Source: a virus (Duplodnaviria > Heunggongvirae > Uroviricota > Caudoviricetes). Taken from it: a DNA stretch of 64,000 bases. The position numbers and the translations under genes are program-made. The stretch is from positions 104,808-168,807 of the IMG/VR virus record IMGVR_UViG_3300050821_010761; one strand, given 5' to 3'. The notes under the pieces were generated by a model. It was not told the DNA's origin. It saw nothing but the letters and a program-made list of their open reading frames with translations, and made no database searches. Every line of letters begins with the position of its first letter. Within the stretch, counting starts at the first letter, position 1. Below are positions 949 through 60,507 of this stretch, piece after piece.

Positions 949-962
949 GCAATCTTTAGACT

Positions 963-1208: not shown

Positions 1209-1229
1209 AAGCATAAGAGGAATAAAACG

Positions 1230-2288: not shown

Positions 2289-2290
2289 GT

Positions 2291-2584
2291 ATGGCAAAAG
2301 AAAGAATTTCTAGAGTAAATAAGGCTAACGAAAAGCCAATGACACTGGAAGAAGCTAAAGCTTATCGTGCCTCTTTGTATGTTCCACGACAGATAAAGTT
2401 GTCGGATCAACAAAAGAGAGAACAGTTTAGGATTTTTTGGGCTCAAGCAAAACGTAAGTACGGAAAGACTAAAGATCTAGAAGAAATCTTATGGTTGCAT
2501 TTGAAAGCTTCAAAAATGGACGAACCAGACATGTTTGCTAAAGGGCTATTGCATTTTGGATTAAAGGAAATTAAGGGAGAATAA
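2291..2584 (+). CDS. hypothetical protein (97 aa)
   Basis: Tightly packed between flanking genes. Stop/start juxtaposed with the sheath gene. Confidence 0.4.
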   Translation: MAKERISRVNKANEKPMTLEEAKAYRASLYVPRQIKLSDQQKREQFRIFWAQAKRKYGKTKDLEEILWLHLKASKMDEPDMFAKGLLHFGLKEIKGE

Positions 2585-2585
2585 A

Positions 2586-4766: not shown

Positions 4767-4790
4767 TCTATAAGGTAATTAGGAGAAAAT

Positions 4791-5291
4791 ATGGCAGGAA
4801 ATCCTTCGAGTCCAAATCCGCTTCCAAAAGGTTATACAGCCACCACTGGTGGAAAAGTAGTAACTGGCGCACGAGCCCGAGTTTATGTGAATAATCAACT
4901 AATTGGCATCTTTGAAAGTTGCACAGTTTCGAGTTCTTTGGGAACTGAACCTATCTTTTTGTTGGGTCGTTATGCTCCTGATGAGATCTCAATCACTTCT
5001 AGCGAAGCTGTAAACGTTACATGCTCTGGATTCCGAGTGGTTGGCGCTGGCTTGCACACCTTGCCTGCTTACCCTCTAGTTTCGGACCTTTTGTTGTTTG
5101 ATCCCTTCACGATCACCGTCGTGGACAGGCAAACTGGCGAAACTCTTGAAACTATCCTTGGTTGTACGCCTAGCTCGCAAAATACGAACTACAACGCTAA
5201 AGCGACTAGCAAAGTCAATATCACTTACATCGGCACTCTTGGATTCAACGAAGACGCCAATGACAGTGATCCAGGCAATACGCTCCCTTAA
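4791..5291 (+). CDS. tail tube protein
   Basis: 166 aa with RBS AGGAGAAAAT-ATG. Pattern RVYVNNQLIGIFESCTVSS...E.I resembles the T4 gp19/Pvc tube family. Lies directly downstream of the sheath gene. Confidence 0.65.
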   Translation: MAGNPSSPNPLPKGYTATTGGKVVTGARARVYVNNQLIGIFESCTVSSSLGTEPIFLLGRYAPDEISITSSEAVNVTCSGFRVVGAGLHTLPAYPLVSDLLLFDPFTITVVDRQTGETLETILGCTPSSQNTNYNAKATSKVNITYIGTLGFNEDANDSDPGNTLP

Positions 5292-5343
5292 GTATTTTAA
5301 TTATGAGCATGAGTTAAAAGGTAAGCATTTTTATAATCTGATT

Positions 5344-5395
5344 GGGTAGTTCTATCTACCCCAAAGGGTAGTTTCATCTACCCTTTTTATTTTTG
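5344..5395 (+). terminator. tandem-hairpin rho-independent terminator after the sheath-tube operon
   Basis: Two copies of the GGGTAG-N6-CTACCC hairpin. The second is followed by TTTTTATTTTT. Confidence 0.65.
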
Positions 5396-5545
5396 AGACC
5401 GTCGTTTCAATTGCTTAAGACTCCGCTATAGCGGCAATGTGGGTGCAAATCCCATCGGTCTCGCTACCGCTTAAATTCTTTCTGAGCCAATCTTCATATA
5501 GTTCGCATGGGCGAATATATGCAAATAGCATAGGGTAGGGTTAAA

Positions 5546-6454
5546 TTGGCTATAGAGAAGGCGTGGGCGGCGGTTCCACCACAATTATTCACGGCTGACG
5601 GAACTACATTAGGCGTTGTAACAGTTGCAAATACTTCAGGTTTCAAGGTCAAACAACTAGTCACTATAGCCAATGGCGCTCCTTCCACTTTATCTGTACA
5701 AGTCCAAGTTAGAAGAGTCTTATCCTCGACACAATTGATCGTAGGTCCAAATCCAGCTACGCTCCAACCTCCATTCAAACAAGAAGGCGCTTCGTTATTA
5801 TCTAAGCGTTATGATATTTCGGCATTTACCGTTGCCGCTGGAGCCTACATATACGCTGGAGAACTCCCTAAAGTAATCATACCGATTCCAGATGTGGTTG
5901 CTGCAGTTTACGATCAAGAACCCACAGTCGCTATTCGTACAACTGGCGTAGACCAATTTGGTAATTATTATAGCGATACGAATCCTCTTCCAGTAGCTTT
6001 TGATGGTACCGTAGAAATTGGCGATGTTTCCATCGTAGAAGGTGGCAACACTATGACCGTCAATTCTGACGGCTCAATCAATGTAAATGTAATTGAAACC
6101 CCCATTTCTGGACAAACCGTAATAAGTGTTTATAATCAAGTACTTAATATCGCCTCTGGAATAGAAACCACATTAATAAATTACACCGTACCTCCTGGCT
6201 ATACCGCTGTTTTGGAAAGAATCAGTGTGTCTGGTGAGAATATAGCCAGATATGACGTATTGTACAATAGTAATCCATTTGATACTCGTAGGACCATGTT
6301 TGGCGGTAATCTGACCACTGATTTCGATTACACGACTGGCACATCGAATGGTTTCGTGCTAAATGCTGGCGACACCCTAATAGTACAAGTTTTACATGAA
6401 AGACCGTACACTGGAACCTTTAACGCTAGACTTCAAGTTCTTCAAATTGCTTAA
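5546..6454 (+). CDS. fiber-like/virion structural protein (302 aa, TTG start)
   Basis: Long ORF with no ATG near its 5' end, so a TTG start is used. C-terminal YTVPPGYTAVLERISVSGENI motif is shared with the 490-aa protein. Confidence 0.45.
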   Translation: MAIEKAWAAVPPQLFTADGTTLGVVTVANTSGFKVKQLVTIANGAPSTLSVQVQVRRVLSSTQLIVGPNPATLQPPFKQEGASLLSKRYDISAFTVAAGAYIYAGELPKVIIPIPDVVAAVYDQEPTVAIRTTGVDQFGNYYSDTNPLPVAFDGTVEIGDVSIVEGGNTMTVNSDGSINVNVIETPISGQTVISVYNQVLNIASGIETTLINYTVPPGYTAVLERISVSGENIARYDVLYNSNPFDTRRTMFGGNLTTDFDYTTGTSNGFVLNAGDTLIVQVLHERPYTGTFNARLQVLQIA

Positions 6455-6504
6455 TAAAAACACACTCTAAGGCTGCCAAAGCAATCTTAGATATAGAGGT
6501 ATCC

Positions 6505-6690
6505 ATGACCCCTTACGAACTTAAAAAAATTCAAGTTGAGCTAAAGCGAGTTAACGCTGGGCGAGAAGAACAAGAACTAAAAATTCTTGAGCTTCAAGAT
6601 ACCATCAAACGAATAGAAGCTAGCATAGATTCATCTATGGCTAAAGAAAAAGAATTAGAAGAAAAAATTAGAAACGCAAAGGTTGAATAA
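6505..6690 (+). CDS. small coiled-coil protein
   Basis: 61 aa with heptad-like KE-rich sequence, between fiber-like genes. Confidence 0.3.
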   Translation: MTPYELKKIQVELKRVNAGREEQELKILELQDTIKRIEASIDSSMAKEKELEEKIRNAKVE

Positions 6691-8195: not shown

Positions 8196-10466
8196 TTGGC
8201 TGATTTACCATATATACAACAGCGTCAAGAGGTTTCCATCGCTGGTCAGGATTCGACTGGCGATCAAGTCAATTACGTAAGTGCCGACGCTAATGGCAAC
8301 ATGTTCGTTAAGGATTATGCGGACGGTGCTACTGGCTCTGCTGTTCCATCTGTTACCACGCAAATAGGTGGTTCGGATGGCACTGATCTCAGAACTTTAT
8401 CTACGGATACATCTGGCAAACTTAAGGTTAATCTCAACGACGGCGCTGGCAATCCCATAACTTCTGCTTCAAACGGAAATGCGGGAAATCAACTATTACA
8501 TGTTCAAGTTCCAGATACTACGACTACTGTCGTAGCACTGGGTGCATTAAACGCCACTATTTCTATTCAAATGGCTGGTCTTCCTGGCGTGGGTTTTCAG
8601 CTTGCAGCTGGCACATTCATAGGAACCATAACTCCACAGTGTTCTTTGGATGGCGGAACATCGTGGGTTAATTGTGCGTTTTATAATCCAATAAGCACAT
8701 CGGCCTCCTCCAATTATTCTTTTTTTACAAGCAATACACTTACGGTACTTTCGATATTACCTATCAATGGATCGTCAAACGTCAGAGTAATAGTTACAAG
8801 CTATGTTAGCGGTACTGCAAATGCCATCATGCGAGCTTCAGAGATTTTAGGACCAGTAGCTTCGTCGGCGTCATTACAAGATCCTCAGACCTATAACTAT
8901 TCTAATGTGACAGTTAGAAATGAACTTAGAAACGCTACCTCTATACGCTTAAGAGGTGCAGATTTTATTGGAACTATTTTAGATACCAACATGTGGTCTG
9001 CAACATTGACTGGTAGTGGTTCAGACGTTATATCTGACGGCGTAATCAATTTGTCAACTGGCACTACAGCTAATTCATCATCTTTTCTGGCTTCTGTTCA
9101 TAGATCTAGATATGTTGCTGGTACGGTGAACGCTTTTCATGGAGGAATTCGACTTGGGGATACGGGAGTAGCTAACAACGTTAGAAGGTGGGGTGCATAC
9201 GATAGCCAAGACGGCGTGTATTTTCAACTTAATGGTACTACTCCAGGTGTAGGAATAAGAAATGCTGGCGTAGATACTATAATCACGAGTTTTAACGGTC
9301 CGCATCCATTAGTACTAGATACAAATTTTCATATCTGGGAGATTCAATATTCATTTGCCGCAGGAACCGCTTATTTCTATCAAGATAATAATTTAATACA
9401 TACATATACTTCACCCACTTCTAGCTTATCCTCAAATCCAAATTATCATCTAGGATTTGAAAGTACTAATTCAGGCGGCGGGACTACTAACGCTTCTCTG
9501 TATATTCGCGGTACGTCCATCATGAGATATGGTGAGGCCGATGTCAAGCCTAGATTCTTTCATCCGATGTTTTCGTCTAGGGTGCAGAATACTACAGGTA
9601 CTACTACTGGATCTGCATCAACTTTAGTTATTCCCATTAGTGCTACAAAAGCTGGGGATTTAATTGTTGTTACTGCCGCTGCCTTAGCGAGTACTCTAAC
9701 AATCACAGATAGTGCATCTCAAACGTATTCCACTGCTACTAGTCAAACTTCCAGTGCAATTCACTTTTATACATTTTATGTGGCAAATACTGCAGCTGGT
9801 GTTACTTCTATTACGTTGACTCCTGGAGCCAGTACTCCTGTTGTAGCTATTGTTACAGAATATGCTAATGTTATTGCTTCTTCTCCTTTAGATCAAATTT
9901 CCACTAACACAAATTTAACCGCAACTTCTTGGACTAGTAATAATACTCCATCAACAACTCAGGCCGTAGAACTTTTAGTTGGTTCTGCTCTAGATTTCGC
10001 GCATAATAACGACGTATTCACAGCAGGTTCTGGATGGCTGGCAACCAATACTGTGAATGGCGTCGGTGGCGGCAATAACTTGACGGCTTTCCAAGAAGAT
10101 ATGTACGTAACTTCAATTGGCACATATGCGGCTACAGGAACAAATACTACATCAACTACTATATTGGCTGCTATCGCGACATTTAAATTTTCTAGTACCA
10201 TTTTATCCAATGGGCTGACTATACTAAATGCACCTACCGTGATTAATATCGGTGCAGGAACACTTCGCAGAGTAATAATAAATACTCCTGGGACTGGATC
10301 GGCGAGTATGACTTTTTATGACAACACCACCAATTCAGGTCAGGTCATAGCAGTTGTTTCTCTTACGTCTGGACAAAATGAACTTGATTATGATTTAGAT
10401 TATGATAACGGGCTAACTATGGTTGTTAACTCAAGCACCGCAGATTTTACGGTGATCTATGATTAA
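8196..10466 (+). CDS. large fiber/receptor-binding-like protein with concanavalin/LamG-like central domain (756 aa, TTG start)
   Basis: Central segment (SSFLASVHRSRYVAGTVNAFHGG...WEIQYSF...YFYQDN) has a jelly-roll lectin-like pattern. C-terminal module is paralogous to the end of the 184-aa protein. Confidence 0.5.
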   Translation: MADLPYIQQRQEVSIAGQDSTGDQVNYVSADANGNMFVKDYADGATGSAVPSVTTQIGGSDGTDLRTLSTDTSGKLKVNLNDGAGNPITSASNGNAGNQLLHVQVPDTTTTVVALGALNATISIQMAGLPGVGFQLAAGTFIGTITPQCSLDGGTSWVNCAFYNPISTSASSNYSFFTSNTLTVLSILPINGSSNVRVIVTSYVSGTANAIMRASEILGPVASSASLQDPQTYNYSNVTVRNELRNATSIRLRGADFIGTILDTNMWSATLTGSGSDVISDGVINLSTGTTANSSSFLASVHRSRYVAGTVNAFHGGIRLGDTGVANNVRRWGAYDSQDGVYFQLNGTTPGVGIRNAGVDTIITSFNGPHPLVLDTNFHIWEIQYSFAAGTAYFYQDNNLIHTYTSPTSSLSSNPNYHLGFESTNSGGGTTNASLYIRGTSIMRYGEADVKPRFFHPMFSSRVQNTTGTTTGSASTLVIPISATKAGDLIVVTAAALASTLTITDSASQTYSTATSQTSSAIHFYTFYVANTAAGVTSITLTPGASTPVVAIVTEYANVIASSPLDQISTNTNLTATSWTSNNTPSTTQAVELLVGSALDFAHNNDVFTAGSGWLATNTVNGVGGGNNLTAFQEDMYVTSIGTYAATGTNTTSTTILAAIATFKFSSTILSNGLTILNAPTVINIGAGTLRRVIINTPGTGSASMTFYDNTTNSGQVIAVVSLTSGQNELDYDLDYDNGLTMVVNSSTADFTVIYD

Positions 10467-29915: not shown

Positions 29916-30192
29916 TTTCCCAATCCCATTCGCCTTCGTAGACTAATTCCTCAACTATTCCATCTATTTCCGACTCTTCATCGTCCGTTAGCGTCTCCTC
30001 TGTATCAATAACATACGAATGGCTATCAATGAGCCAACGTCCAACACCACGACCGCCATCTCCATCAGCACCATAGTGAGAATCGTATATACCCTCTACT
30101 TCGATATCCACTGTTACCGTTTTGCCAGACAATAACTCTATCTCACGTTCTCTGTGAATGTTAGCCATGTTATACTCCCGACAATCGAGCAA
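29869..30192 (-). CDS. acidic hypothetical protein (107 aa)
   Basis: D/E-rich. Packed array. Confidence 0.35.
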   Translation of the reverse strand: MLDCREYNMANIHREREIELLSGKTVTVDIEVEGIYDSHYGADGDGGRGVGRWLIDSHSYVIDTEETLTDDEESEIDGIVEELVYEGEWDWESAANDEANEYDEDLF

Positions 30193-30475
30193 TAGTCTGT
30201 ATGCCGTTTACGTACTTTATCAGGCCACCAGCTCGCAGTATATCCATTAAGGTGCTAGTATCAATAGTGCCTTCCTCAGTCTCGACCAGTGCGCCCAGGA
30301 GCGTTGTAGCCGTAATATCTAATTTTGATACATTATCTAGTACTTGGACAGTACGTCCAGCTGCAATTTCTTCCACAATCTTTTTAAGAGTGGTATAAGT
30401 ACTTGTTTCACAATCATACAGTTTGACATCCACGTATCGGCGAATAATTTTAGTTTCAGTTTGAGTCGTTGTCAC
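30170..30475 (-). CDS. hypothetical protein (101 aa)
   Basis: Packed array. No recognisable motifs. Confidence 0.35.
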   Translation of the reverse strand: MTTTQTETKIIRRYVDVKLYDCETSTYTTLKKIVEEIAAGRTVQVLDNVSKLDITATTLLGALVETEEGTIDTSTLMDILRAGGLIKYVNGIQTIARLSGV

Positions 30476-32918: not shown

Positions 32919-33179
32919 CTATCGTGTTATTGGATTTTTGTCAAAATTCTCAGAATGAGACAGTCTCATATTGAGAATCTCAGATTGATAATCTCGAATT
33001 GGGACTGGCTTGAATCTTGCATGCATCTCAGCTCGATACGTCTCACAATGAGACGTTGGCTCGTTTATTGCATATAGAACCAATTTCTTAATAAATTCAA
33101 TAGATTGCACGTTGGCATGATTCTCCATCGAAATATAATGGAATTGGTTGATTTTGATGCGTATTTTTTTGGACCGCAT
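32919..33179 (-). CDS. hypothetical protein (86 aa)
   Basis: RBS AGGAG plus ATG (MRSKK). Coding sequence carries two perfect GAGAC-type palindromes. Confidence 0.4.
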   Translation of the reverse strand: MRSKKIRIKINQFHYISMENHANVQSIEFIKKLVLYAINEPTSHCETYRAEMHARFKPVPIRDYQSEILNMRLSHSENFDKNPITR

Positions 33180-33346
33180 TTTCTTTGCCTCACTCCTAGA
33201 ATATCCTGCTTGACGCTCTAATCGCCCCGCCATTGCACGCATGCCAAGTGACGCGATGCAGCATATGCGACCCGCAAACCCTCAAACCGTCCCATTTTGA
33301 GACAAATTTCGCCTCAATACAATGCCTTAGTCACGCCGCGCGACGC

Positions 33347-33595
33347 TTAGCCTTGGTTAGCGCCACGTGGCAGTGTCACTGGACACTGGTGTTTGGTTAC
33401 ATCAAGGCATGCATCGGTCAAGGTCCCGTTTGGCCTAACCAATTCAATGAGACCACTTAGGACCGATACGCCTAGCCCACCGTCTAATAACGTCTCGACT
33501 AAGTAAACTTGTCCGCGTTGCAACGTGCCCGTCTCGGTCTCGACGTCGCATAGTGCCTTGACAAAATCACCACGTCTCAATATGAGATTCTCCAT
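33347..33595 (-). CDS. hypothetical protein (83 aa)
   Basis: RBS GGAAGGAAACGT-ATG (MENLIL). A palindrome overlaps the start codon region. Confidence 0.4.
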   Translation of the reverse strand: MENLILRRGDFVKALCDVETETGTLQRGQVYLVETLLDGGLGVSVLSGLIELVRPNGTLTDACLDVTKHQCPVTLPRGANQG

Positions 33596-33658
33596 ACGTT
33601 TCCTTCCGTTTGGCATAATAATTGCATGCATTATTGCATATATGTAATTATTATGCAA

Positions 33659-33923
33659 TTGTTTTAATTCAATACAATCTCAATTCAATACACTAACCCA
33701 TTTCTGTCTCATTTTGAGACAACTAACCCATCTCCGTGTTACTCCAAAACAATGTCTCAATTCGAGATTAGCCTTAGCGTAGTAAAATAGTCCATCTCAA
33801 ATTGATCATTGGTCTGCAATTTCTGTGCCACCACTCTATACGTATCCCTTTGATACACGAATATTTGTCCTATCCTGAGACGCTCCCTCAAAATCAAACG
33901 TTTGATAAGTTTTACATGATTCA
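33659..33923. promoter_or_regulatory. operator-like regulatory region with perfect 17-bp palindrome TGTCTCATTTTGAGACA flanked by ACTAACCCA and AATTCAATACA direct repeats
   Basis: Palindrome at 33705-33721. Direct repeats at 33666-33692 and at 33692/33722. Intergenic region upstream of the 33347-33595 gene. Confidence 0.4.
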
Positions 33924-34844
33924 TCAATGCACTACCGTGCCAACGTCCCTAACAAAACCCGACGTGTCTCGCTTAGCAATGCCCTTGGCCTTGAGACCGA
34001 CGATCAATCCAACGGTCTCGCGAGCATCCAAAAAGCGAAAATCATGCTTGTCACCGTCAATCACCTTAAAACCCTGATAAGTCTCGGGCAATGCCGACGT
34101 CCTAAACACGGTCGCAACGTTGACGCCTAAATTCAGTGCCTTAAGGCAATCGTCCCAATTTGATTCACTGGCACTAAATGTGACATGATAGTTCGGTATC
34201 GAAACAATACGCTCTAAACGCTTGAATACTTTGGTATAATCGTAGAACGTCACGTTTGGATACAGTTCAAAAATGTTCTTGCCTGTATCACCGACCTTGA
34301 ATAACTCCCATGCCAAGTCCGAAGTCCCATTGAGTCTCACAATGACACGGTTGCTGGTCTTGGCACAGATTTTGCCTATTTCGCGACTCAAACGCGTCAA
34401 AAACGTCTGTCTAAATTTGAGAAAATATAGCGTTTTGCGAAGTCTTGGCATCTGGACACCGTCGAATAGCCCGCGTCCCGCACCGTTGAGGCATGCCGCG
34501 CGACACCCCGCCGATGCGTTAGGGCATATATTTACACCGCTAAGGTCGGATGGACTAAGGTGCAAAATCCAATTCGAGACGTCGCCTAACCCCGCGTCCT
34601 TAGCCGTTTTTGGATTGATCATGCCGTTAGACAGGATTGACACCTTAGTTAGACGCTGTTCCAAAGCAAGACGATCGTTTTGACTCAACTCTTCGAAATT
34701 GATCAGGTCCCAAAGGTCTGTCTCAAGTGGAGACAACTCCTGTTTGGCACGAATTTTGCTTTGCAATTGGTCTTTAACTTGTCTCAATAAGAAACCCTTA
34801 CCCGCATCTGTCCCAGTATGGAGCGATTGAATGATTTGTTTCAT
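33924..34844 (-). CDS. Cys-motif protein, possibly phage Gp37/Gp68 (DUF5131)-like
   Basis: Start at MKQ with RBS AAGGAATCAAA-ATG. Cys-x6-Cys-x3-Cys cluster (NICPNASAGCRAAC). 307 aa. Confidence 0.4.
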   Translation of the reverse strand: MKQIIQSLHTGTDAGKGFLLRQVKDQLQSKIRAKQELSPLETDLWDLINFEELSQNDRLALEQRLTKVSILSNGMINPKTAKDAGLGDVSNWILHLSPSDLSGVNICPNASAGCRAACLNGAGRGLFDGVQMPRLRKTLYFLKFRQTFLTRLSREIGKICAKTSNRVIVRLNGTSDLAWELFKVGDTGKNIFELYPNVTFYDYTKVFKRLERIVSIPNYHVTFSASESNWDDCLKALNLGVNVATVFRTSALPETYQGFKVIDGDKHDFRFLDARETVGLIVGLKAKGIAKRDTSGFVRDVGTVVH

Positions 34845-35038
34845 TTTGATTCCTTTAGTTCTGCATTCCATCTCATTATAAGACTGTCTATTTTCCTTAT
34901 CAATCTGGGACACTGGTCTACGTTGTCTCGAAACAATGCATTTCGTAGACGCTCCAAGTCTCGCTTCGAGAACTCCACTTGGTCTTGAAACGAGCCGTCT
35001 ACATTCAAGACGGCATCGAGTACTATTTTTGGTCTCAT
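34841..35038 (-). CDS. hypothetical protein (65 aa)
   Basis: GGGGTTATCAAA-ATGAGAC start context. ATGA overlap with the downstream gene. Confidence 0.35.
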   Translation of the reverse strand: MRPKIVLDAVLNVDGSFQDQVEFSKRDLERLRNALFRDNVDQCPRLIRKIDSLIMRWNAELKESK

Positions 35039-35062
35039 TTTGATAACCCCTTTTATCTCGTT

Positions 35063-35377
35063 TTAATTCAAACCCTGTTCGAAATCCCATAATGATACTT
35101 CGTGTGTATCACCCTCAGTCTGCTGGCATGACTCACAATGATCCAAGCAATCGTCTCCAAATGAGACAACTTGAATTTCATCCAAGCAATGCGAACAAAC
35201 TCTAACCGTCTCAATTTGAGGCTGACTCACACTGAGACTAAGTTTGCCCCAAACCAAATGCCTATAAAACCCTTGATGAGACCTATAGGTTGGTCGGTGT
35301 ATCTTAAAGTGAGTCCAGTCCCACCGTGCTGTCAAGCCAATCTCAATATAATACGCGAAAAACCAAAAGCGTTTCAT
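35063..35377 (-). CDS. Cys-rich hypothetical protein (104 aa)
   Basis: RBS GAGGAG. CSHCLDE...CLDHCESC. Confidence 0.4.
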   Translation of the reverse strand: MKRFWFFAYYIEIGLTARWDWTHFKIHRPTYRSHQGFYRHLVWGKLSLSVSQPQIETVRVCSHCLDEIQVVSFGDDCLDHCESCQQTEGDTHEVSLWDFEQGLN

Positions 35378-35378
35378 T

Positions 35379-35585
35379 TTAATACTCCTCGTTTGAGTCG
35401 TCGGACCGTATCTCAGCTAAGTGTATCTCGAACAGGTCTCGTCCGTACAGTGCAATATACGCGGTTGCGTATATTTGAGACAAAGGATCATTGGTCTCAT
35501 CCAATACGTATTGAAAGAAGTCGTCTCCTTCTGAGTCAATTATGTATTGAGCACACTCTAGTAAATTTGGTAAATCATGTCTCAT
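35379..35585 (-). CDS. acidic hypothetical protein (68 aa)
   Basis: ATGAGAC start with GGGTGG RBS. Confidence 0.35.
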   Translation of the reverse strand: MRHDLPNLLECAQYIIDSEGDDFFQYVLDETNDPLSQIYATAYIALYGRDLFEIHLAEIRSDDSNEEY

Positions 35586-35586
35586 T

Positions 35587-36051
35587 TTAAGCCACCCGTG
35601 CCCGTTCTTTAATTGTTAGAGGGATGCGTAGCGTTTTGAGGCCAAGGATTTTTTGTGCCAAAATGAGACCGTCAGCCCATTCTGAGACAAAACCATCGGA
35701 CTTGACCTCAATTGAATCACCTAGATAGTGTTTCAAAATGATCAGACATGCGGTCACGACTGTATCATATGGATACTGTCTAGTTTTGCAAAAACTAAAT
35801 GTCTCATTCTCGGACAAGTGTTCACGCATAATGAAGTCTTCGCATTGACCGACGCGTGCCGAACCATTGACCTTGAGACCGCCATATTGAAACGTCTTAT
35901 CGTGGGCCGTGTAACCAGATAAGCCACCAAATGTCTCAGAATAATATCGTACCACTTTGGCACATTTGCGAATCGCAATTTGATACTTCTTCTCCATTTG
36001 AGACGTTTTGCCTCTATTCGAAGTAAACGACCAGTAGTGAGTGTGTCCCAT
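35587..36051 (-). CDS. hypothetical protein (154 aa)
   Basis: AAAGGGGTTCAAAA-ATG start context. Confidence 0.4.
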   Translation of the reverse strand: MGHTHYWSFTSNRGKTSQMEKKYQIAIRKCAKVVRYYSETFGGLSGYTAHDKTFQYGGLKVNGSARVGQCEDFIMREHLSENETFSFCKTRQYPYDTVVTACLIILKHYLGDSIEVKSDGFVSEWADGLILAQKILGLKTLRIPLTIKERARVA

Positions 36052-36143
36052 TTTTGAACCCCTTTGTTTTGGTCTCGCGACCTATATACATCCTATCGTC
36101 AATCCGTGACAAAACTTAAGTAAAAAATGCAATGCGTATCAAA

Positions 36144-36764
36144 TTAAGACGAACATAGACCGCCGATAAGCCAACGTGTCTCGCGTTGTTTTTTATTAGC
36201 CTTAGTCTGCAATGCATCGCGATGCTCGGTGATTTTGGTCTGGACGTCCTTAAGTTTTGCCCGCAACGCGTCTCGTTTTTTTGCGTCTGTTTTTGAGACA
36301 AAGCTACCGTCACAGACTGGACATTTGAGTGTTTTGGTCCTAAATCTGGTGTCAAGTCTAGACCGACACGTCGGGCAACTAACAAACTCAATTGACTTAA
36401 GTTTTTGGTCAATCGCGGTGGATAGGTCGCGTTCTAAGGCATTGAGTTTGTTTTGCAATTCAGTGGACGTCGCTAACAGTTTGGTTAGCTTAGCATCTGG
36501 CTCAAAACGATTCGTCTCTTTATAACGCACTGCAATGGCATTCTCCCATTTTTGGCACGTCTCAGAAAGATACTCGGACGCCTCGTGGTGGCTATTGAAT
36601 TCTTTAGAATGTTTAATTTCGAGACCACGGCACATATTGAGACGACCAGAATACGACTGTCCCGACTCATGGTCGCATTCGTCCTGATAGGCTTTAAAGC
36701 GTTTCTCAAGTTGAGACTCGGTCAACTTGCCGTCTAAATCTAACTCATCAAAACAAGCGCCCAC
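36144..36764 (-). CDS. zinc-ribbon-containing protein (206 aa, GTG start)
   Basis: AAAGGGGTTTTT-GTG start context. CPTCRSRLD...CPVCDG. Confidence 0.4.
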   Translation of the reverse strand: MGACFDELDLDGKLTESQLEKRFKAYQDECDHESGQSYSGRLNMCRGLEIKHSKEFNSHHEASEYLSETCQKWENAIAVRYKETNRFEPDAKLTKLLATSTELQNKLNALERDLSTAIDQKLKSIEFVSCPTCRSRLDTRFRTKTLKCPVCDGSFVSKTDAKKRDALRAKLKDVQTKITEHRDALQTKANKKQRETRWLIGGLCSS

Positions 36765-36836
36765 AAAAACCCCTTTGTTTTATTTTGGTACACCAAAAGA
36801 CTGCCCCATTATGAGGCAGCCCTAACTGTATCAAAA

Positions 36837-37640
36837 TTATGCAGTGAGTAGCTTAGTCGCCTCGTCCCAGATTGACGCATTAAGGTCAATCGACTTGACC
36901 GACTGTTCACTGATACGTCGAGCGGTACCGTTGCGGACCGTTGCAATGCCGTTTTGATCGGTGGTGGTGGTTTGATAGCGGATGCCAAAACGAATTGCAT
37001 TCTCTTGTATCACGTTGAGAACACTAAATAAATCCGATGCCTTATCGTCGGCACGTCTAACCCTAAGCAGGTCTTGTGCCTCAATTTTGGTCACATTCTC
37101 AGTTTGAGCCAAACGAATTTGAGCTACGTTTGTCGCTAATTGAGACAGTTCAATAGCACTAACTTGACGTGCCATCATGGAACGTACCATATTGGACAAC
37201 GCTTGACGTTGCGCGACTAGTTGAGGGATGAGTGTGTTCAATTCTGATACAGGATCACCTAAATGTTTCACTTTGACTGTCTCAAAATCCCTTACACCGA
37301 CAACTAGACCGTTCTTGCAAACCAAGCGATATAAGCCTAACATGCCAACTAGGGAGCCGTAGAGATGAGGGACCTTAAAGACGATACGGAAGTCTAGACC
37401 GTCAATGCCTAGACCGTTGTCGCGTGCCTGATAGACTGCAACGGTGTTTTGAAAATCGGCGCGGTCTGGATTGCGTGCCTTGCCCGTTTTGAGACCGATA
37501 AGGTCAAAACCGTGTCCATCCAAGACTTGAGCAATTTGAGATGGTTGGATCACTTTGAAACGTTCCGACTTATCGGCGTGCCGTTGGTCTTGAATGAAAC
37601 TAGTTGAGATGCTCGGTGCCGTGTTTTGATTATAACGCAT
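36837..37640 (-). CDS. DUF932/TIGR03299-like phage-plasmid protein
   Basis: Start MRYNQNTAPS with RBS AAAGGGGAATAT. Size and N-terminal pattern resemble the DUF932 family seen on plasmids, ICEs and phages. Confidence 0.45.
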   Translation of the reverse strand: MRYNQNTAPSISTSFIQDQRHADKSERFKVIQPSQIAQVLDGHGFDLIGLKTGKARNPDRADFQNTVAVYQARDNGLGIDGLDFRIVFKVPHLYGSLVGMLGLYRLVCKNGLVVGVRDFETVKVKHLGDPVSELNTLIPQLVAQRQALSNMVRSMMARQVSAIELSQLATNVAQIRLAQTENVTKIEAQDLLRVRRADDKASDLFSVLNVIQENAIRFGIRYQTTTTDQNGIATVRNGTARRISEQSVKSIDLNASIWDEATKLLTA

Positions 37641-37693
37641 ATATTCCCCTTTGTTTTGGCACTGCAACGTTGCCGTGCCTTATATACATCTTA

Positions 37694-37873
37694 TCGTCAC
37701 TTTCGCAAAATACTAAAGAACATTTTGCAAAATATTCAAATCGTCTCGAATTAATACGTTATGAGTGGCAAAACCGATAAGACTCATCCAAAACAGCGTT
37801 TGATTGCATTGGTCGAAATGTATGGATAAGTCCCAAATCACCTTGAGCAAAATTATATGTCTCATAATGATAC
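37694..37873 (-). CDS. hypothetical protein (59 aa, below ORF-track cutoff)
   Basis: GGAGTATCATT-ATGAGAC start context identical to its neighbours. Confidence 0.3.
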
Positions 37874-38059
37874 TCCAAACTCATTCGTTTTGATCTGTTT
37901 CAATTTAAGACGTAGCTCAATCTCAATGCGAGCCACGGCAGTCTCAATACAAGAGTGTATCCCGTCCCATTCAATGGTAAGCGTACCAAAACGAGACCCT
38001 TTGCTAACTACCTCAATGATTCTATAACCATAGCTACGTTGTCTTATAATGAAACGCAT
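37862..38059 (-). CDS. hypothetical protein (65 aa)
   Basis: GGGGTGCCTA-ATG start context. Confidence 0.3.
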   Translation of the reverse strand: MRFIIRQRSYGYRIIEVVSKGSRFGTLTIEWDGIHSCIETAVARIEIELRLKLKQIKTNEFGVSL

Positions 38060-38472
38060 TAGGCACCCCGCTGTAAAATGATCTGAATAGCACCGTTAGT
38101 AAACCCGAGACGTTTTGCCTGATCAAGGGAAATCTCAAAATGAAACGTCACCGTCTTAAAACCACGCTTAGCACGGTCCCTCAAACCACCGACACTAGGG
38201 ACGCCGCCTAAGCCAAACCGTCCATATAACCAGTTCTTGCAGTCAATCACCACGCCGTCGAAATAACCGTGTCGTTTCAATAGTTTGGCATCAAGTTTTA
38301 CCTCAACTAGTAACTCAATGACGTCGGCGCCGATATAGTTTTGTCTCAAAACCGCGACCTTAGCTTGATCAAATAAAGAGCCCGTCTCGTTTGGTCCAAC
38401 CAGTCTCAATTTGGCACGTGGTATACCATCGCCCAAACCCTCGCCCTGTATCAGTGTCAATAGATGTCTCAT
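38059..38472 (-). CDS. hypothetical protein (137 aa)
   Basis: Start at MRHLL with GGGGGTTATT-ATGAGAC. Confidence 0.4.
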   Translation of the reverse strand: MRHLLTLIQGEGLGDGIPRAKLRLVGPNETGSLFDQAKVAVLRQNYIGADVIELLVEVKLDAKLLKRHGYFDGVVIDCKNWLYGRFGLGGVPSVGGLRDRAKRGFKTVTFHFEISLDQAKRLGFTNGAIQIILQRGA

Positions 38473-38536
38473 AATAACCCCCAAGTAATAGTTTGATACA
38501 CCAGCTAGCGTCCCAAAATGAGACGCTAAAGCTGTA

Positions 38537-38740
38537 TCAATTCAATTCGATCACTTCTGATACACTAAGGATTTTGCCCCAAATTGGAGCGTCGTCCCCG
38601 ATCTCAGCACCGACCATCTCATAATAGATCACTTTGGCTTCGCAAATAGCTAACTCAATCGTTTTTGCCTCAACCTGATACGTTTTGGTGTGGTGGTTAG
38701 CCATGCGTCCTAGACCTAGAGTAACTGAAAATTGTCTCAT
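38537..38740 (-). CDS. hypothetical protein (67 aa)
   Basis: GGGAGTATCATT-ATGAGAC start context. Confidence 0.35.
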   Translation of the reverse strand: MRQFSVTLGLGRMANHHTKTYQVEAKTIELAICEAKVIYYEMVGAEIGDDAPIWGKILSVSEVIELN

Positions 38741-38763
38741 AATGATACTCCCTTGTAAATGTT

Positions 38764-38988
38764 TCATTCGTGTTTCATTTTAATAACAGATAAGGCGGAC
38801 CGCCATTTAGGCAGACACTCGTCAAAACGCTCGAAAATGGCATCGCTCGGTGTTTCAAGTCCTAACTCCATATAAAGTCCAGTCTGGTTCAATCGTCCCG
38901 ACTCAAGGGCCTCGAATGTCTCAATTATGGAATCTTCTTGCATACCGATCTGAAACATATAGTTGATCACTTGCATGAGTCTCAACAT
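38764..38988 (-). CDS. hypothetical protein (74 aa)
   Basis: AAGGAGTTTATT-ATG start. The shorter start avoids overlap with the lipoprotein ORF. Confidence 0.3.
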   Translation of the reverse strand: MLRLMQVINYMFQIGMQEDSIIETFEALESGRLNQTGLYMELGLETPSDAIFERFDECLPKWRSALSVIKMKHE

Positions 38989-39071
38989 AATAAACTCCTT
39001 GGTTTGGTCGAGACTTATTCCCGACTCATACCATCTTATCGGACGATCAAAACAAAACTTTAGTAAAATTT

Positions 39072-39221
39072 TCACTCCTCAAATAAAGAGCATTCGTGCA
39101 TATTTGATACAACCTGCATCATTTTGATACAGTCGTCATGCTTAGCCTGTTCTAAATCCGTGTCAACGGACGCGCAACCGACTAAGCTAAGTGAAAATAA
39201 TACAATAAAAATGTATCTCAT
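39072..39221 (-). CDS. mini-lipoprotein (49 aa)
   Basis: GAGGTATCATT-ATGAGAT start context. MRYIFIVLFSLSLVGC signal peptide with lipobox. Confidence 0.35.
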   Translation of the reverse strand: MRYIFIVLFSLSLVGCASVDTDLEQAKHDDCIKMMQVVSNMHECSLFEE

Positions 39222-39676
39222 AATGATACCTCACCCAAAATTGCCTCAAGTTCTCGAAATAATAGACTTTTTGCTACGTCTAACATTTTGCGTTCACCAA
39301 ACGACAGCTCTCTAAGACCGCGCCACGCCTCTAGGTCCGCGTAGACGTGAGCCATCTCAATTAGAGATCCCGTTTTGATACGCTCCATCAAGTCGCGGTA
39401 CCTCATATTCCAAGTCTGGTCTGAAACGTTTGGCTTAGGTCTATTTGCCTGTATTATTTGCAATGCCTTTATAGCGTCTTGTTTAGATGCCACGTGCCTC
39501 AAACCCAACTTCTCGGCACCGTTCATCGGTACCATAATAACCATGCCGCTGTCTTTAATTGAGACATTCAAAAATTTGTGCTTAGCACCAAGCATCTGTT
39601 TTGTCTCAATCGAGACGATCTGACCAACACCGTGTCCAGGATAGACGACGAACTGTTTCACTTTAAAGCGTTTCAT
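39218..39676 (-). CDS. CarD/CdnL-family RNA polymerase-binding transcription factor
   Basis: MKRFKVKQFVVYPGHGVGQIVSIE...VPMNGAEKLGLRH...MAHVYADLEAW...LSFGERKMLD matches the CarD_CdnL_TRCF pattern. AAAAGGGGTTATT-ATG start. Confidence 0.7.
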   Translation of the reverse strand: MKRFKVKQFVVYPGHGVGQIVSIETKQMLGAKHKFLNVSIKDSGMVIMVPMNGAEKLGLRHVASKQDAIKALQIIQANRPKPNVSDQTWNMRYRDLMERIKTGSLIEMAHVYADLEAWRGLRELSFGERKMLDVAKSLLFRELEAILGEVSL

Positions 39677-39861
39677 AATAACCCCTTTTCTTTTGCCTCA
39701 ATTTTATATACTTCGTTTGCGATCAATTCGAATATGGTCCAGCTATATCTAAGTGCCTCAGAACGAGAAACAGCTGGTTGGGTGGCACGGATTTTGCGTC
39801 CATCCCAGAATGTAACAGTTACAACGAATTGTTTCATTTCTAGACATCTTATCGTTAGCAT
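39673..39861 (-). CDS. hypothetical protein (62 aa)
   Basis: Start overlaps the stop of the upstream mini-ORF (ATATGCTAA). Confidence 0.3.
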   Translation of the reverse strand: MLTIRCLEMKQFVVTVTFWDGRKIRATQPAVSRSEALRYSWTIFELIANEVYKIEAKEKGLL

Positions 39862-40022
39862 ATAATAACCTCAATTGGAAAATTGCGGTATATCATTCGA
39901 GCGGTCTCTTCGAACATAGCGCCTAGAACCATGCCGTCAATAGTGTGAACCATATAAACAATGCGTCTCGATTTGAGATCAGTCCACCGTGGCGTCAATC
40001 GAATAGGATATAGGTGTCTCAT
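39855..40022 (-). CDS. hypothetical protein (55 aa, below ORF-track cutoff)
   Basis: AAAGGGGTTATA-ATGAGAC start context. Confidence 0.3.
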   Translation of the reverse strand: MRHLYPIRLTPRWTDLKSRRIVYMVHTIDGMVLGAMFEETARMIYRNFPIEVIIC

Positions 40023-40043
40023 TATAACCCCTTTGTAAACGTT

Positions 40044-40499
40044 TCAAAACATGACAGAATCACCGTTAGCTAAGAATGTCTCACGCGCCTCAATAGCCTT
40101 AATAACTTCTTCGTGTGTCTCACAATCAGTCGGACAGATATAGAACGTACCACCTGAGACGTATCCATATGAGAATTTTTGATCACCATAATAACGTAGC
40201 GTCCAATAGACCAAACCACTAACAGTCTCGCGTATCCATTCGATACAATAGAACTCATCCCCGAACGTCTTGGCATCAATAGCCTTGGTATCACCGTTGA
40301 ATAGCTTCATCTCATTTTGGCACGTTTCTAGTTCGTCTCGTTCTACCTCAAGGCTACATTCTAAGGACCTTATCTCGCGTTTGAGGTCTTCGATCTGTCT
40401 ATAGGTGTCGTCAACGCGGTTTTGCAAGTTAGCCTCAAGGGTTTGGAGTAACTCAAAATGATTCATCTGGTTATTTGGGAATACAGAAGTCCGTTTCAT
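40044..40499 (-). CDS. coiled-coil-containing hypothetical protein (151 aa), first gene of island operon
   Basis: AAGGGGTTTTGG-ATGAAAC start context. Preceded by a 1.1-kb non-coding leader. Confidence 0.4.
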   Translation of the reverse strand: MKRTSVFPNNQMNHFELLQTLEANLQNRVDDTYRQIEDLKREIRSLECSLEVERDELETCQNEMKLFNGDTKAIDAKTFGDEFYCIEWIRETVSGLVYWTLRYYGDQKFSYGYVSGGTFYICPTDCETHEEVIKAIEARETFLANGDSVMF

Positions 40500-41636
40500 C
40501 CAAAACCCCTTGGTTAGCGTTATACCATCTTATCGGTCGATCAAAACAAAACTCAAGTGAATTTTGAATTATTTTCACTGTATCATAATGAGTCAAGGCG
40601 TAGCCGACCAATGTCTTGCAATCTTTACACCGACAGTCCGTGGTTCTCTAGGATAACAACTTAGCATGCCATTGGAACGTCCTAACCCCGATAAGACAAG
40701 AATACGTCTATTTGGCATGTTAGGACACGTCTAGGCAAAACCGTCGCTTAGCGCTGTCAATAGTTGCGTCTCAATAGGAGACGAATAGGCTTGTGTCAGG
40801 CTGAGACACCAATTCAGCCATGAAGTCTCATAGTGAGACCTTTATACGCGCCTCACCCTCCCTTGGCGCCATTCTCGCCTAGTGTAAACGCACTGGGCAC
40901 TGTCTCGTCCTGAGATATCCTGACTAAACTATTGAAACAACTAAATAATTTCGTTATTGGACCAGTGTACTGTTGTTAGACTGAGCTAAGTGACACGGCG
41001 CCGATGACTGAGCTAGTGACTGTATCGGTGTGACACAACTAGTAGTGAGCCAAATTGAAACGTTTACATGTTACGGCACGATTCTTGCAAGGGGACATAG
41101 CTTAGTCTCGTTTTGATGCGGGTGGCTAAGGACTTGGACTAGTGGGATAGGTGTGTCATTTTGCTACGTCACTAAGCTATGTCTCAGTTTGGGACTGGGC
41201 ACGAATATTGCATCCCTGCAAGCGTCCATGCCAACGGTGTCTAAGGTATATACGTATCAGATGCGGCACTGTCATGAGTTTAGACAGCGTAAACATGCGA
41301 ATCCCCTAGGGAATCTCATATCGGGATATGGCATATGGATTGCACCCATGCCCTGAGCTACTTGCTCCCAGTGTTTTAACAAAAGTGTAAATTTTATAAA
41401 TACAACAAAAAAATTTCCAAAAACTGAATTAAATTTTTTCCGAGAAATTTTTACACAAAATCGCGTCACCACAGATGCATTGTATTGCTTCCAATGGCCT
41501 CTATACGCCCTCTAATGACTGCCCCATTATTGCCCACAATCACAGCCCATTTCTCACACAGCGCAGATGAGAACCTTTGGGACGTGCATCTAAACGGACG
41601 CTGGACAAACTATTGTAAACAGTGATATAATCCAAT
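40500..41636. promoter_or_regulatory. 1.1-kb non-coding divergent control region (candidate promoters, iteron-like repeats, possible ncRNA)
   Basis: No credible ORF. Repeats GACTGAGCTAAGTGAC (40981) and GACTGAGCTAGTGAC (41007), inverted copy GTCACTAAGCT (41170). 8-bp inverted repeat GTCCTAAC...GTTAGGAC at 40680-40730. AT-rich right-hand end. Confidence 0.5.
41602..41631 (+). promoter_or_regulatory. sigma70-like promoter with extended -10 (TGGACA-N18-TGaTATAAT)
   Basis: -10 element ends 5 nt before the ATG of the HNH gene, implying a leaderless or very short-leader transcript. Confidence 0.45.
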
Positions 41637-42380
41637 ATGGACAGCATTTTAAAAACATTTAAAAAAGGTTATAAATTTTGCAGTCAGTGTAAAATTGGAA
41701 AACCCTTCTCGGAATTTAAACCTCATAAAGTCGGTCCCTTTGGTTGGTATTCTAGGTGCCTAGCGTGTTCTACTAAGAAACAAAAAGAAGTATTACCCGT
41801 GGGATTTTGTCGATGCATCAAATGTAAAGAAATAAAAGAATTGACGACTAAACATTTTCAAAAGAGTAGCAGAGCGAAATCTGGATTTGACTCAAGATGT
41901 AAAATTTGCATAGTACAAATTCGTGCTGAATATGACACATCGTACAAGAGGGAATATGCAAAAGAATATAATCGTATCCACAAAAAGGAAAGAGCCGCCT
42001 ATATAGCAAAAAGACGAAAGGAAGACCCCGCCTTCAGAGCGCGAAGTAACGTTGGTCAATGGACCAGACAATTACTAAGGGCAAATAAGCTGAAATATTC
42101 AAAAATTATAGGTTGTACGCAGGGGCAATTCGTAAGACATTTAGAGAGTTTATTCGAACCAGGAATGACTTGGGAAAATTACGGAAACGGTCCTGGAAAA
42201 TGGCAAATTGATCACATTAAATCTTTAGCGTTAGCGATTCTTGAAGGAAGTGAAAGTTTTTCAAAAGCTTGCAATTATAAAAACTTACAACCATTGTGGC
42301 ACAGCGATCATGCAATAAAAACCGCGAAAGATGTTCTTTTGATCAGATCGTTTAAGGCACCTTTTAACGCACTGTCCTAA
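41637..42380 (+). CDS. HNH-family endonuclease with N-terminal Cys-rich region
   Basis: C-terminal WQIDHIKSLA...NLQPLWHSDH (His-Asn-His spacing). Multiple CxxC pairs at the N-terminus. No SD. Confidence 0.5.
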   Translation: MDSILKTFKKGYKFCSQCKIGKPFSEFKPHKVGPFGWYSRCLACSTKKQKEVLPVGFCRCIKCKEIKELTTKHFQKSSRAKSGFDSRCKICIVQIRAEYDTSYKREYAKEYNRIHKKERAAYIAKRRKEDPAFRARSNVGQWTRQLLRANKLKYSKIIGCTQGQFVRHLESLFEPGMTWENYGNGPGKWQIDHIKSLALAILEGSESFSKACNYKNLQPLWHSDHAIKTAKDVLLIRSFKAPFNALS

Positions 42381-59135: not shown

Positions 59136-59434
59136 TGCTTAAGATCAGAGAAGCCAAAAAAGAACTAGCAGAGAAATCGTACAGGGATATTCAAGAATCT
59201 ACAGCATGGACCTGGGCATCTCGGGGCGTGGCAAGTTATCAAAATGTCATGATCGTAAGCAAAGACAAGAAAATGGCTTATTATTTATTGGCTGAGGAAT
59301 ATTCTCATGAGGCTCGCGAACACGCTGCTCTGGTAGAAGCTGGTGCATCCAGTCTTTTGAGCCAGGTACAAGCTGCTATAGTGCCACATGCTCTAAAAGC
59401 ATGGAATCACATCGAAGATGAGTTTGGCATATGA
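59135..59434 (+). CDS. hypothetical protein (99 aa)
   Basis: ATGA overlap with the RNA ligase gene. Confidence 0.3.
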   Translation: MLKIREAKKELAEKSYRDIQESTAWTWASRGVASYQNVMIVSKDKKMAYYLLAEEYSHEAREHAALVEAGASSLLSQVQAAIVPHALKAWNHIEDEFGI

Positions 59435-60507
59435 AATACGAGATCGAAGCCTTTGAAGTTTTGGTGAAAGATGGTTATTTGAAAAGGGCTGAAAAGGGCG
59501 ACCTAGTTCTTTACGGCTATACTGATAAGACAACTTTCGAGCGAGCTTGGCAAACCAAGTACACACGCGATGCCCGTGGCATCATATTGAACAAAAATAC
59601 TGGCGAAGTCGTCGCTAAGACATTCAAAAAATTCTTCAATCTTAACGAGATGGAAGAAACACAATTGAAAAATTTACCAAATGAGCAATACGAAGTTTTT
59701 GAGAAATACGACGGCTCCATGGGTACAGCCTTCTTCCATGACAATGACTGGCACATGGCCACTCGTGGAAGTTTTACATCAGAACAAGCACTCCGTGGCC
59801 TTGCAATATTAAATAAAAACTATAATATTTCGAGACTTGATCCTAATTGCACCTATCTTGTAGAGATTATCTACCCAGAGAATAAAATAATCGTAGATTA
59901 TGGCGATAAAGAAATGCTTGTGCTGCTTGGCGTTTTCCACGTTCCCACGGGCGACGAATTGTCTTTTCAGACAGTTAGGTGCATAGCGCAAGTTACGGGA
60001 ATGCCATGTGCAGTGCAATATTTTCACACAATAGAACAGATGATCGAATTACAGAAAACGATGCCAAAAGACGAAGAGGGCTTCGTCGTTCGCTTTGAAT
60101 CTGGTTTGAGGGTAAAAATCAAAGGCGAAGAATATATGAAAATCGCCAAGATGATTTCTCAGATGTCTCCGATTTCCTTTTGGGAGTCCATGGAGAATGG
60201 TAAGGTTAAGAAAGATTATTTGCAACAGCTTCCAGAAGAGTTTAGAAAAGAATACGAGCCAATGGTAGAGAGACTCGAAAGTCTCTACGAGAAAACGTTG
60301 TTTGAAATTGCTACAGAACAGACTAAATTGCCTATTACGGAACTGAAAGATAGGAACGATCGTAAGAATCTTGGCTTGTACTTATCTAGTGGCAAGCACG
60401 ATCTTAAGCATGCTTCCGTTATGTTTGCTGTGGTCTTAAAGCAATGGGAAACGGTCAACTCATATATTATGAAGTTGATTAGGCCCACTGGAAACGTTTT
60501 GTCATGA
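59431..60507 (+). CDS. rnlA: ATP-dependent RNA ligase, T4 Rnl1-type
   Basis: Nucleotidyltransferase motif I KYDGSMG. The N-terminal RGIILNKNTGEVVAKTFKKFFNLNE block closely matches T4 Rnl1 (RGIMFE...KFFNLNE). Confidence 0.8.
   Translation: MKYEIEAFEVLVKDGYLKRAEKGDLVLYGYTDKTTFERAWQTKYTRDARGIILNKNTGEVVAKTFKKFFNLNEMEETQLKNLPNEQYEVFEKYDGSMGTAFFHDNDWHMATRGSFTSEQALRGLAILNKNYNISRLDPNCTYLVEIIYPENKIIVDYGDKEMLVLLGVFHVPTGDELSFQTVRCIAQVTGMPCAVQYFHTIEQMIELQKTMPKDEEGFVVRFESGLRVKIKGEEYMKIAKMISQMSPISFWESMENGKVKKDYLQQLPEEFRKEYEPMVERLESLYEKTLFEIATEQTKLPITELKDRNDRKNLGLYLSSGKHDLKHASVMFAVVLKQWETVNSYIMKLIRPTGNVLS

Follow-up and report, generated by a model that had tools for sequence, protein, structure and literature searches.

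A dense array of GTCTCA-N3-TGAGAC palindromes, predicted sites of a dimeric protein, covers a hypervariable gene module in uncultured T4-sized phages

To our knowledge, few bacteria or phages carry arrays of regulator sites within their genes, and the best-known case is the stoperators. Cluster A mycobacteriophages carry more than 20 stoperators per genome for one regulator; these sites lie at and downstream of promoters and are believed to halt RNA polymerase during elongation, so that blocks of genes are silenced (PMC9283540). T4-type phages carry promoter-early stem-loop (PeSL) cassettes in their hyperplastic regions (PMC2839356, PMC4122927), and in cells, PhaR dimers bind a degenerate 17-bp palindrome, YTKN-TGC-RNY-GCA-NMAR (PMC12849132, PMC12542648). 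Here we describe a dense array of palindromes of the form GTCTCA-N3-TGAGAC in an uncultured Caudoviricetes phage. The stretch analyzed, called the window throughout, is 64,000 nucleotides long (positions 104,808 to 168,807 of IMG/VR record IMGVR_UViG_3300050821_010761) and is the end portion of a 168.8-kb metagenomic contig (ENA ERZ27253637 k141_5289317).

The window holds 50 matches to GTCTCA-N3-TGAGAC with at most two mismatches, compared with 2.09 ± 1.38 in dinucleotide-preserving shuffles, and none of 100 shuffles reached 50. Nearly all of the dyads (48 of 50) fall within 8.3 kb (32,947-41,195), and the other 55.7 kb contain two, both with two mismatches.

Dyad array, 32947..41195, no strand: 48 sites with at most two mismatches and 88 with at most three, over about 19 co-directional minus-strand genes and their leader.

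Counted over the 12 specified bases, 3 array sites are perfect, 16 have one mismatch and 29 have two. They follow one another at about one site per 95-175 bp (2-5 sites per 500 bp), evenly between both sharp boundaries, and some abut, lying 15-18 bp apart from centre to centre. The helical phasing between neighbouring sites showed no clean periodicity. The first-pass annotation of this DNA had noticed a few of these palindromes and judged that they were not due to chance, which the shuffles uphold. It had also placed them in a local cluster at the left end of the island, as we call the gene block that bears the array. This is refuted by the motif search of the window, in which dyads are equally frequent over the whole 8.3-kb island.

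The half-site GAGAC/GTCTC occurs 87 times between 32.9 and 41.3 kb, against about 14 expected. Inside the island, a position weight matrix (PWM) of the bases flanking GAGAC is symmetric and yields the full dyad GTCTCA-N3-TGAGAC; the flanks of the 46 GAGAC copies outside the island carry no information. Neither the other spacers from 0 to 8 nor an everted arrangement is enriched in the window. The flank PWM and the fixed spacer show that the dyad is the source, and the GAGAC enrichment is the footprint that the array leaves. The opposite account, in which the dyads are a by-product of general GAGAC enrichment, is thus wrong. Chance and base composition are ruled out as the cause by the dinucleotide shuffles, by synonymous-codon shuffles and by dinucleotide profiles. 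Separately, the pentamers TGCCA/TGGCA and GCCAA/TTGGC are over-represented 2.2-2.5-fold throughout the window.

In one part of the window outside the array, the half-site is strongly depleted. Between positions 6001 and 32900 it occurs 9 times, where an order-2 Markov model predicts about 28 and a mononucleotide model 40, and the count is zero in the 6-16 kb part of the window. Such depletion would suit a host or phage enzyme of restriction-modification or DNA modification that acts on the GTCTC/GAGAC 5-mer. GTCTC is a known type IIS recognition word, and the island protein GP88, whose fold is weakly radical-SAM-like, could in principle modify nucleic acid. We nevertheless consider this account very improbable. 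The information spans the full 6-3-6 dyad with its fixed spacer and not the 5-mer alone, and the depletion is confined to this phage, being absent from the flanks of the arrays in its relatives. A six-fold enrichment on the phage's own DNA would make no sense without protection, and GP88 is also encoded by an array-negative relative (L014).

The four inverted-repeat sequences listed in the first-pass annotation are all present where it placed them, letter for letter, and belong to the following features.

CGTCTCACAATGAGACG, 33039-33055, no strand: perfect 7-3-7 palindrome inside the open reading frame (ORF) at 32919-33242; one of the three perfect array sites.
TGTCTCATTTTGAGACA, 33705-33721, no strand: perfect and intergenic, within unit 1 of a 30-bp tandem duplication at 33692-33751.
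Two abutting one-mismatch dyads, 32947-32961 and 32963-32977, no strand: the final sites of the array, which contain ATGAGACAGTCTCAT.
One-mismatch dyad of CGTCTCAATATGAGATT, 33574..33588, no strand: over codons 3-8 of the gene whose product begins MENLIL.

Some of the surrounding description needs correction. ATGAGACAGTCTCAT (32955-32969) is not a separate everted palindrome but the junction of the two abutting dyads. The imperfect repeat CGTCTCAATATGAGATT (33573-33589) does not overlap the MENLIL start codon, as the ATG occupies 33595-33593 of the minus strand. The ACTAACCCA direct repeats (33692 and 33722) are real but form part of the 30-bp tandem duplication at 33692-33751, and the frequency of this 9-mer in the window is at chance level.

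The dyads occur in intergenic DNA and in all three frames of the minus-strand genes, where they encode LSxxE, xLxxR or VSxxD. Coding DNA contains 37 of the 48 window dyads with at most two mismatches and 351 of 460 across ten arrays (about 80%), and dyads are as dense in coding as in non-coding DNA. Among the island genes, 32 dyads are seen in coding DNA, compared with 2.87 ± 1.56 after synonymous-codon shuffling. Codon alignments of DUF932 and GP88 orthologs revealed that an identical peptide can be encoded with or without a dyad; the codons of LLKVRR, for example, read TTCTCAAAGTGAGAC in the relative L012 and TGCTTAGGGTTAGAC in the window. Because sites are made and unmade in these alignments without insertions, the motif is imposed at the nucleotide level.

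A palindrome within transcribed DNA could also act through its structure, as an RNA hairpin in early transcripts or as a DNA cruciform or hairpin recognised by shape. Perfect copies could give a 6-7-bp stem with a 3-nt loop, and each site is transcribed, since the genes all run in one direction. Several dyads overlap start codons (ATGAGAC), and a T-rich run follows the first perfect dyad in three relatives (L022, L023 and L025). This explanation is largely refuted, and we give it hardly any credence. Only 3 of the 50 sites are perfect. At the deviating positions of 258 sites from four phages, pairing is broken 376 times, becomes G.U 129 times and is compensated just 12 times. G.U opposite a perfect half-site is equally frequent on the sense (57) and antisense (56) strands, and an Rfam scan gave no family match. 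Left and right mismatch counts revealed no orientation bias of the imperfect sites. The fixed spacer, the two independently conserved half-sites and the strand symmetry together point to a dimeric protein that reads double-stranded DNA, and the motif is a predicted double-stranded-DNA site of such a protein and not a hairpin. The earlier suggestion of operators for a dimeric regulator was therefore right in kind; the immunity-like switch at the island boundary that came with it is not supported.

Related contigs were reached via homologues of GP88 and of a 154-aa island protein. The same array is present in L012/13, L015/16, L017/18, L019, L020, L021, L022, L023 and L025 and partially in L026, and the array-bearing relatives amount to at least 10 other uncultured T4-sized phages. 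Each of their arrays packs 27-64 sites with at most two mismatches into 5-9 kb with sharp edges, and sites beyond this block are few. Array-positive lineages include the contigs ERZ27253637 k141_5289317 (the source of the window), ERZ25039540 contig_9692 and IMG/VR 3300048813_000140, 3300021437_000001 and 3300049844_000087 (113-177 kb), whereas JGI 3300077761 Ga0645787_0091 and IMG/VR 3300049489_001135, 3300037524_000424 and 3300001199_000003 are array-negative relatives. The consensus (t)GTCTCA-N3-TGAGAC(a) is identical in all 11 lineages, whose proteins are only 50-77% identical. Individual dyads are in part orthologous between relatives and in part turned over. The gene content of the arrays is highly variable, and only three families are universal.

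DUF932 protein, 36837..37640, minus strand: universal core gene 1 (Pfam 4.6e-16), with dyads written by codon choice.
154-aa protein, 35587..36051, minus strand: universal core gene 2, with a fold of no known type; found in 11 of 11 array-positive lineages and also in many array-negative phages.
GP88 (PF17338), 33924..34844, minus strand: universal core gene 3, with the start probably at 34844 and an invariant C-x6-C-x3-C.

The 154-aa family (MGYTHYW...GGLSGYTAH...FCKT..PYDTVVTACL...SDG) is highly conserved over 329 IMG/VR loci. Its structure model is confident, no structural relative was detected, and the protein looks like an enzyme or a metal-binding protein. More distant phages with this family all lack the array. 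In two of them, we tried and rejected as dyads AATTGCAATTGTACCA (17 copies, L065) and AGAATATTCTGTCTGT (16 copies, L087), which are long, asymmetric, one-strand 16-mers about 1 kb apart. These perfectly conserved 16-mers are probably phage-specific promoters. A nearer relative, L014, has DUF932 and GP88 and lacks both the 154-aa gene and the dyads. Its island (1-6600, especially 4650-5260) is rich in the asymmetric, strand-biased word GCCAC[GA]C and contains tandem repeats of about 55 bp. A switch of specificity in L014 to CGTGGC-N3-GCCACG was considered and dropped, as the signal is this asymmetric word concentrated in the tandem-repeat stretch.

Variable gene content around three universal families would also be expected if the dyads were endonuclease or recombinase targets, or micro-homologies, that shuffle genes in the manner of PeSL cassettes, which are documented recombination points (PMC4122927). 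The contigs of relatives frequently break within arrays, an Endonuclease VII gene flanks the L012 array, and an ORF that is HNH-like by eye, with no Pfam match, flanks the island. This last is a divergent 247-aa ORF at the island's right edge (41637-42380, plus strand), with Cys-rich repeats, the HNH-like part at its C-terminus and no Pfam match at E<0.01. We judge a role in gene shuffling very improbable. Of the homology breakpoints between related arrays, taken as the ends of high-scoring segment pairs, 12% fall no more than 8 bp from a dyad, compared with 12% of random positions; for a limit of 15 bp the figures are 26% and 22% ± 2%. The test is a crude one. The roughly 80% of sites that are intragenic include conserved genes and all frames, which brings no gain for cassette exchange, and second-order selection for evolvability is unlikely to keep 50-90 sites by codon choice. 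The contigs that start or end inside the array region (L012, L014, L015, L019, L020, L023 and others) do so at varying depths. We rejected arrays as terminal repeats or genome ends, since the breaks differ in depth and genome-sized contigs hold the array internally. Assembly fragmentation from strain-level hypervariability most likely explains the breaks.

The island consists of about 19 co-directional minus-strand genes, of which three are recognisable (DUF932, GP88 and a CarD/CdnL-like gene) and the remainder are ORFans. Its transcription presumably runs leftwards from an ORF-free leader and an AT-rich patch, a putative promoter.

ORF-free leader (about 1 kb) with AT-rich patch, 40500..41636, minus strand: patch at about 41370-41465, up to 82% AT.
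Perfect dyad, 40825..40839, no strand: part of the ORF-free leader, close to where the array begins upstream.
Promoter-like elements, 36089-36133, 37652-37696, 38997-39041 and 40491-40535, minus strand: island-specific, four or five in all.
Conserved CGATAAGATG core of the promoter-like elements, starts at 40535, 39041 and 37696, minus strand: also present at 39854 without the upstream box.

The array sets in about 200 bp downstream of the AT-rich patch, and the leader already carries dyads. Such a patch precedes the array by about 200-250 bp in all loci that extend to the upstream boundary, and leader anatomy like that of the window also occurs in L015, L017, L022, L023 and L025. A perfect dyad opens the array in the leader in four of the six loci with an upstream boundary (the window, L017, L022 and L025). 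A TTGACG-N15-17-TATAAT promoter is common to the leaders of L022 (about 6150-6380), L023 and L025. Some 170 conserved nucleotides separate it from the first perfect dyad, after which comes the T-rich run, and these leaders could specify a short leader transcript or attenuator. The window leader is too diverged to align with them.

Within the island, at least four gene starts, including those of the 151-aa, DUF932 and 154-aa genes, are preceded at 20-75 nt by a promoter-like element on the coding strand, ACTTaAGTTTTG-N11-13-CGATAAGATGkAT. It occurs nowhere in the 64 kb beyond the island. The element recurs in L012 (about 650-700, 1175-1225 and 1975-2025), L022 (about 8545-8595), L023 (about 9900-9947) and L026 (about 1015-1065). 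It probably represents a promoter class of its own and may be the true counterpart of PeSLs in these phages. A 44-nt repeat at 39028-39071, 40522-40565 and 36085-36128 holds the promoter-like motif. Two of its copies are 89% identical, and two encode the same N-terminal peptide, FCFDRPIRWY, in different ORFs, which suggests a duplicated cassette of promoter plus gene start.

We interpret the palindromes as a domain-wide operator array, with some 50-90 putative sites of one dimeric protein, that gates or silences an early-type hypervariable module. We put the probability of this reading at about 0.4. The dimeric protein would first occupy the perfect site or sites of the leader, which closely follow the promoter zone, and as its concentration rises, the weaker intragenic sites would fill. 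The whole module would then be coated, with initiation at internal promoters and elongation both blocked by a roadblock or by silencing. In that way, the module would be turned off, or held off, as one unit.

The binder is most likely encoded by the phage, and we infer two candidates for it.

PhaR-type protein of 101 aa, 30170..30475, minus strand: PF07879 (E = 3.8e-14, residues 10-68), DNA-binding domain only.
206-aa zinc-ribbon/coiled-coil protein, 36144..36764, minus strand: best co-occurrence with arrays.

The PhaR-type protein has the sole recognised DNA-binding domain among the window ORFs (Pfam, almost all of 123 greedy ORFs), which makes it a candidate by type and not by evidence. Its gene sits 2.5 kb beyond the array and contains three near-consensus sites, as no other 306-bp stretch outside the array does (P about 5e-4). 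This mini-cluster of sites is present in the window, L012, L099 and L101 only, and no sites flank the gene in L100 and L103. The PhaR-type gene is found near arrays in the window, L012, L019, L020, L021 and L101, and was not found within 10 kb in L022 or L025. The 206-aa gene is present in 11 of 17 array-positive and 4 of 79 array-negative loci, an association confounded by shared ancestry that makes its product a weak candidate. The small proteins proposed as binders in the first-pass annotation, of 86 and 83 aa, are not supported in this role, and neither has a recognisable DNA-binding domain. Homologues of the 86/107-aa ORF (32919-33242) are missing from every other array-bearing phage. Of the 17 array-positive loci, only 7 encode the MENLIL protein, which is also present in the array-negative L014.

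Several observations weigh against a domain-wide operator array. The close relatives L014, L024 and L027 share the core genes yet have no array, and the DUF932, 154-aa, GP88 and PhaR-like genes are all represented among array-less close relatives (L014, L024, L027, L102 and L106). The PhaR-type gene itself occurs in the array-negative L014, L027, L102 and L106, and no residue of the PhaR-like domain distinguishes array-positive from array-negative phages. The 206-aa gene is absent from L017, whose array-positive locus is fully covered. None of the proteins encoded in the island shows a recognisable DNA-binding domain, and neither a helix-turn-helix nor a ribbon-helix-helix gene is present. The downstream edge of the array (32947-32977) has no terminator, and the next co-directional gene is 9 nt away, so the array is not simply a transcription unit. 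Finally, repression (as opposed to activation, protection or titration) and the identity of the binder are both inferred.

Array-less close relatives with the same core genes are what one would expect after a host switch if the dyad were the operator of a host protein. The array would then recruit or titrate a dimeric host regulator or nucleoid-associated protein. As a result, host genes could be de-repressed, division could be blocked in the manner of SlmA, or the module could be coupled to the state of the host. The constancy of the consensus while phage proteins diverged to 50-77% identity is consistent with this, as is the lack of any phage gene that co-occurs perfectly with the arrays. 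Most sites are sub-optimal, as a sink predicts, and the phages carry host-type regulators: the window encodes the one listed next, and relatives encode FlgM and a sigma-54 activator.

CarD/CdnL-like RNA-polymerase-binding protein, 39218..39676, minus strand: Pfam CarD_C 1.5e-18 and RID 2.3e-13.

On the other hand, neither the sharp single block nor the promoter-anchored perfect site is required of a sink, and the hint of a host (Bdellovibrionota) is a weak one. We regard a host-protein sink as unlikely. We know of no host regulator with a GTCTCA-N3-TGAGAC motif, and in a literature search the motif matched cloning primers only, with no report of it as such. The hint of a host comes mainly from the CarD/CdnL-like protein, whose nearest cellular homologues are almost all from Bdellovibrionales/Bdellovibrionota (46-55% identity). 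The related arrays hold no homologue of this accessory gene, which is peculiar to the island of this phage. Together with the FlgM and sigma-54 activator of related phages, it weakly suggests a Bdellovibrio-like host, and with such a host a mechanism coupled to host state would become attractive.

A wider version of these ideas is that a dimeric protein, from phage or host, coats the 6-9-kb host-takeover module as a chromatin-like domain, or that the array is a decoy for a host regulator. With roughly one site per 100-170 bp, this would be a mode of phage genome organisation not described before. The idea is tentative, and we consider it clearly less probable than not. If true, the module would be silenced, protected or released as a unit in a chromatin-like state, possibly tying the early programme to the state of the Bdellovibrio-like host. 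If the decoy version were true, a multi-copy array would reprogram the host by sequestering one regulator.

The source phage is an uncultured, presumably virulent T4-like phage of about 169 kb. Its contig encodes rIIA/rIIB, a class II ribonucleotide reductase, a T4-type RNA ligase, ThyX, dUTPase and an RNA-repair set. The RNA/tRNA-repair genes, at about 42-64 kb of the window (e.g. 59431-60507) and elsewhere, include the T4-type RNA ligase, a PNKP-type HAD phosphatase, Thg1 and RlaP, as well as three HAD_SAK_2 domains and a SpoU methylase. ThyX and dUTPase are accompanied by peptide deformylase and UDG. Megablast against 50,697 phage records gave no nucleotide-level relative, and we found no cultured close relatives or published genomes, with distant matches only at the protein level.

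Conservation of the array over at least 11 diverged lineages implies a strong DNA-level function that acts on a whole gene module and not on promoters. The array would offer a natural system for domain-wide silencing or roadblocking, or for transcription-factor titration, in a virus. The dyad and the island promoter motif can serve as a sequence tag for the early or host-takeover module in this clade of uncultured T4-sized phages. The codon usage of a phage accessory region can evidently be dominated by an overlaid cis-code.

We know of no counterpart at this site density, and the array shares separate features with several known systems. The palindrome matS, GTGAC-RNY-GTCAC, is 13 bp long with an N3 centre. 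The matS/MatP, SBS/SlmA and parS/ParB arrays resemble the present one in that short palindromes define a chromosomal domain by their distribution; they differ in having 10-50 sites over hundreds of kilobases, compared with one 8.3-kb block here. Pfam scans revealed no ParB, MatP or SlmA homologue among the window proteins. The cellular PhaR operator is similar in length and geometry, with inner triplets three bases apart, and a protein with the PhaR N-terminal domain is encoded nearby. However, the core of the phage dyad is TCA-NNN-TGA and not TGC-RNY-GCA. A promoter controlled by cellular PhaR carries one to three sites, and the cellular protein has a C-terminal domain for binding polyhydroxybutyrate that is missing from the phage protein.

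PeSL cassettes are comparable in that they, too, tag a hypervariable run of small early ORFs in T4-like genomes with a short recurring motif. PeSL units are composites of terminator and promoter between genes and coincide with indel and recombination junctions, whereas the dyads are intragenic, are neither promoter- nor terminator-like, do not conserve pairing and show no association with homology breakpoints. Like the dyads, operators of the lambda, 434 and P22 type are 14-18 bp long, have two-fold symmetry and a fixed spacer, and are read by a dimer. Classical operators number 3-6 sites over the promoters of an immunity region beside the repressor gene, while this array has 48-88 sites, of which about 80% fall within coding DNA, and lacks a neighbouring helix-turn-helix gene.

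We file the array as a variant of multi-site regulator arrays. The closest concept is that of the stoperators read by the L5 gp71-type repressor, in which one regulator has many sites in the phage genome and for which blocking of elongation has precedent. Stoperators are asymmetric 13-mers, bound by a monomer in an orientation-dependent manner, and are spread genome-wide over short intergenic gaps of temperate phages. The array described here is instead made of a symmetric 15-bp dyad, is mostly intragenic and 5-10 times denser, and is confined to one 8.3-kb block in a T4-like, presumably virulent phage.

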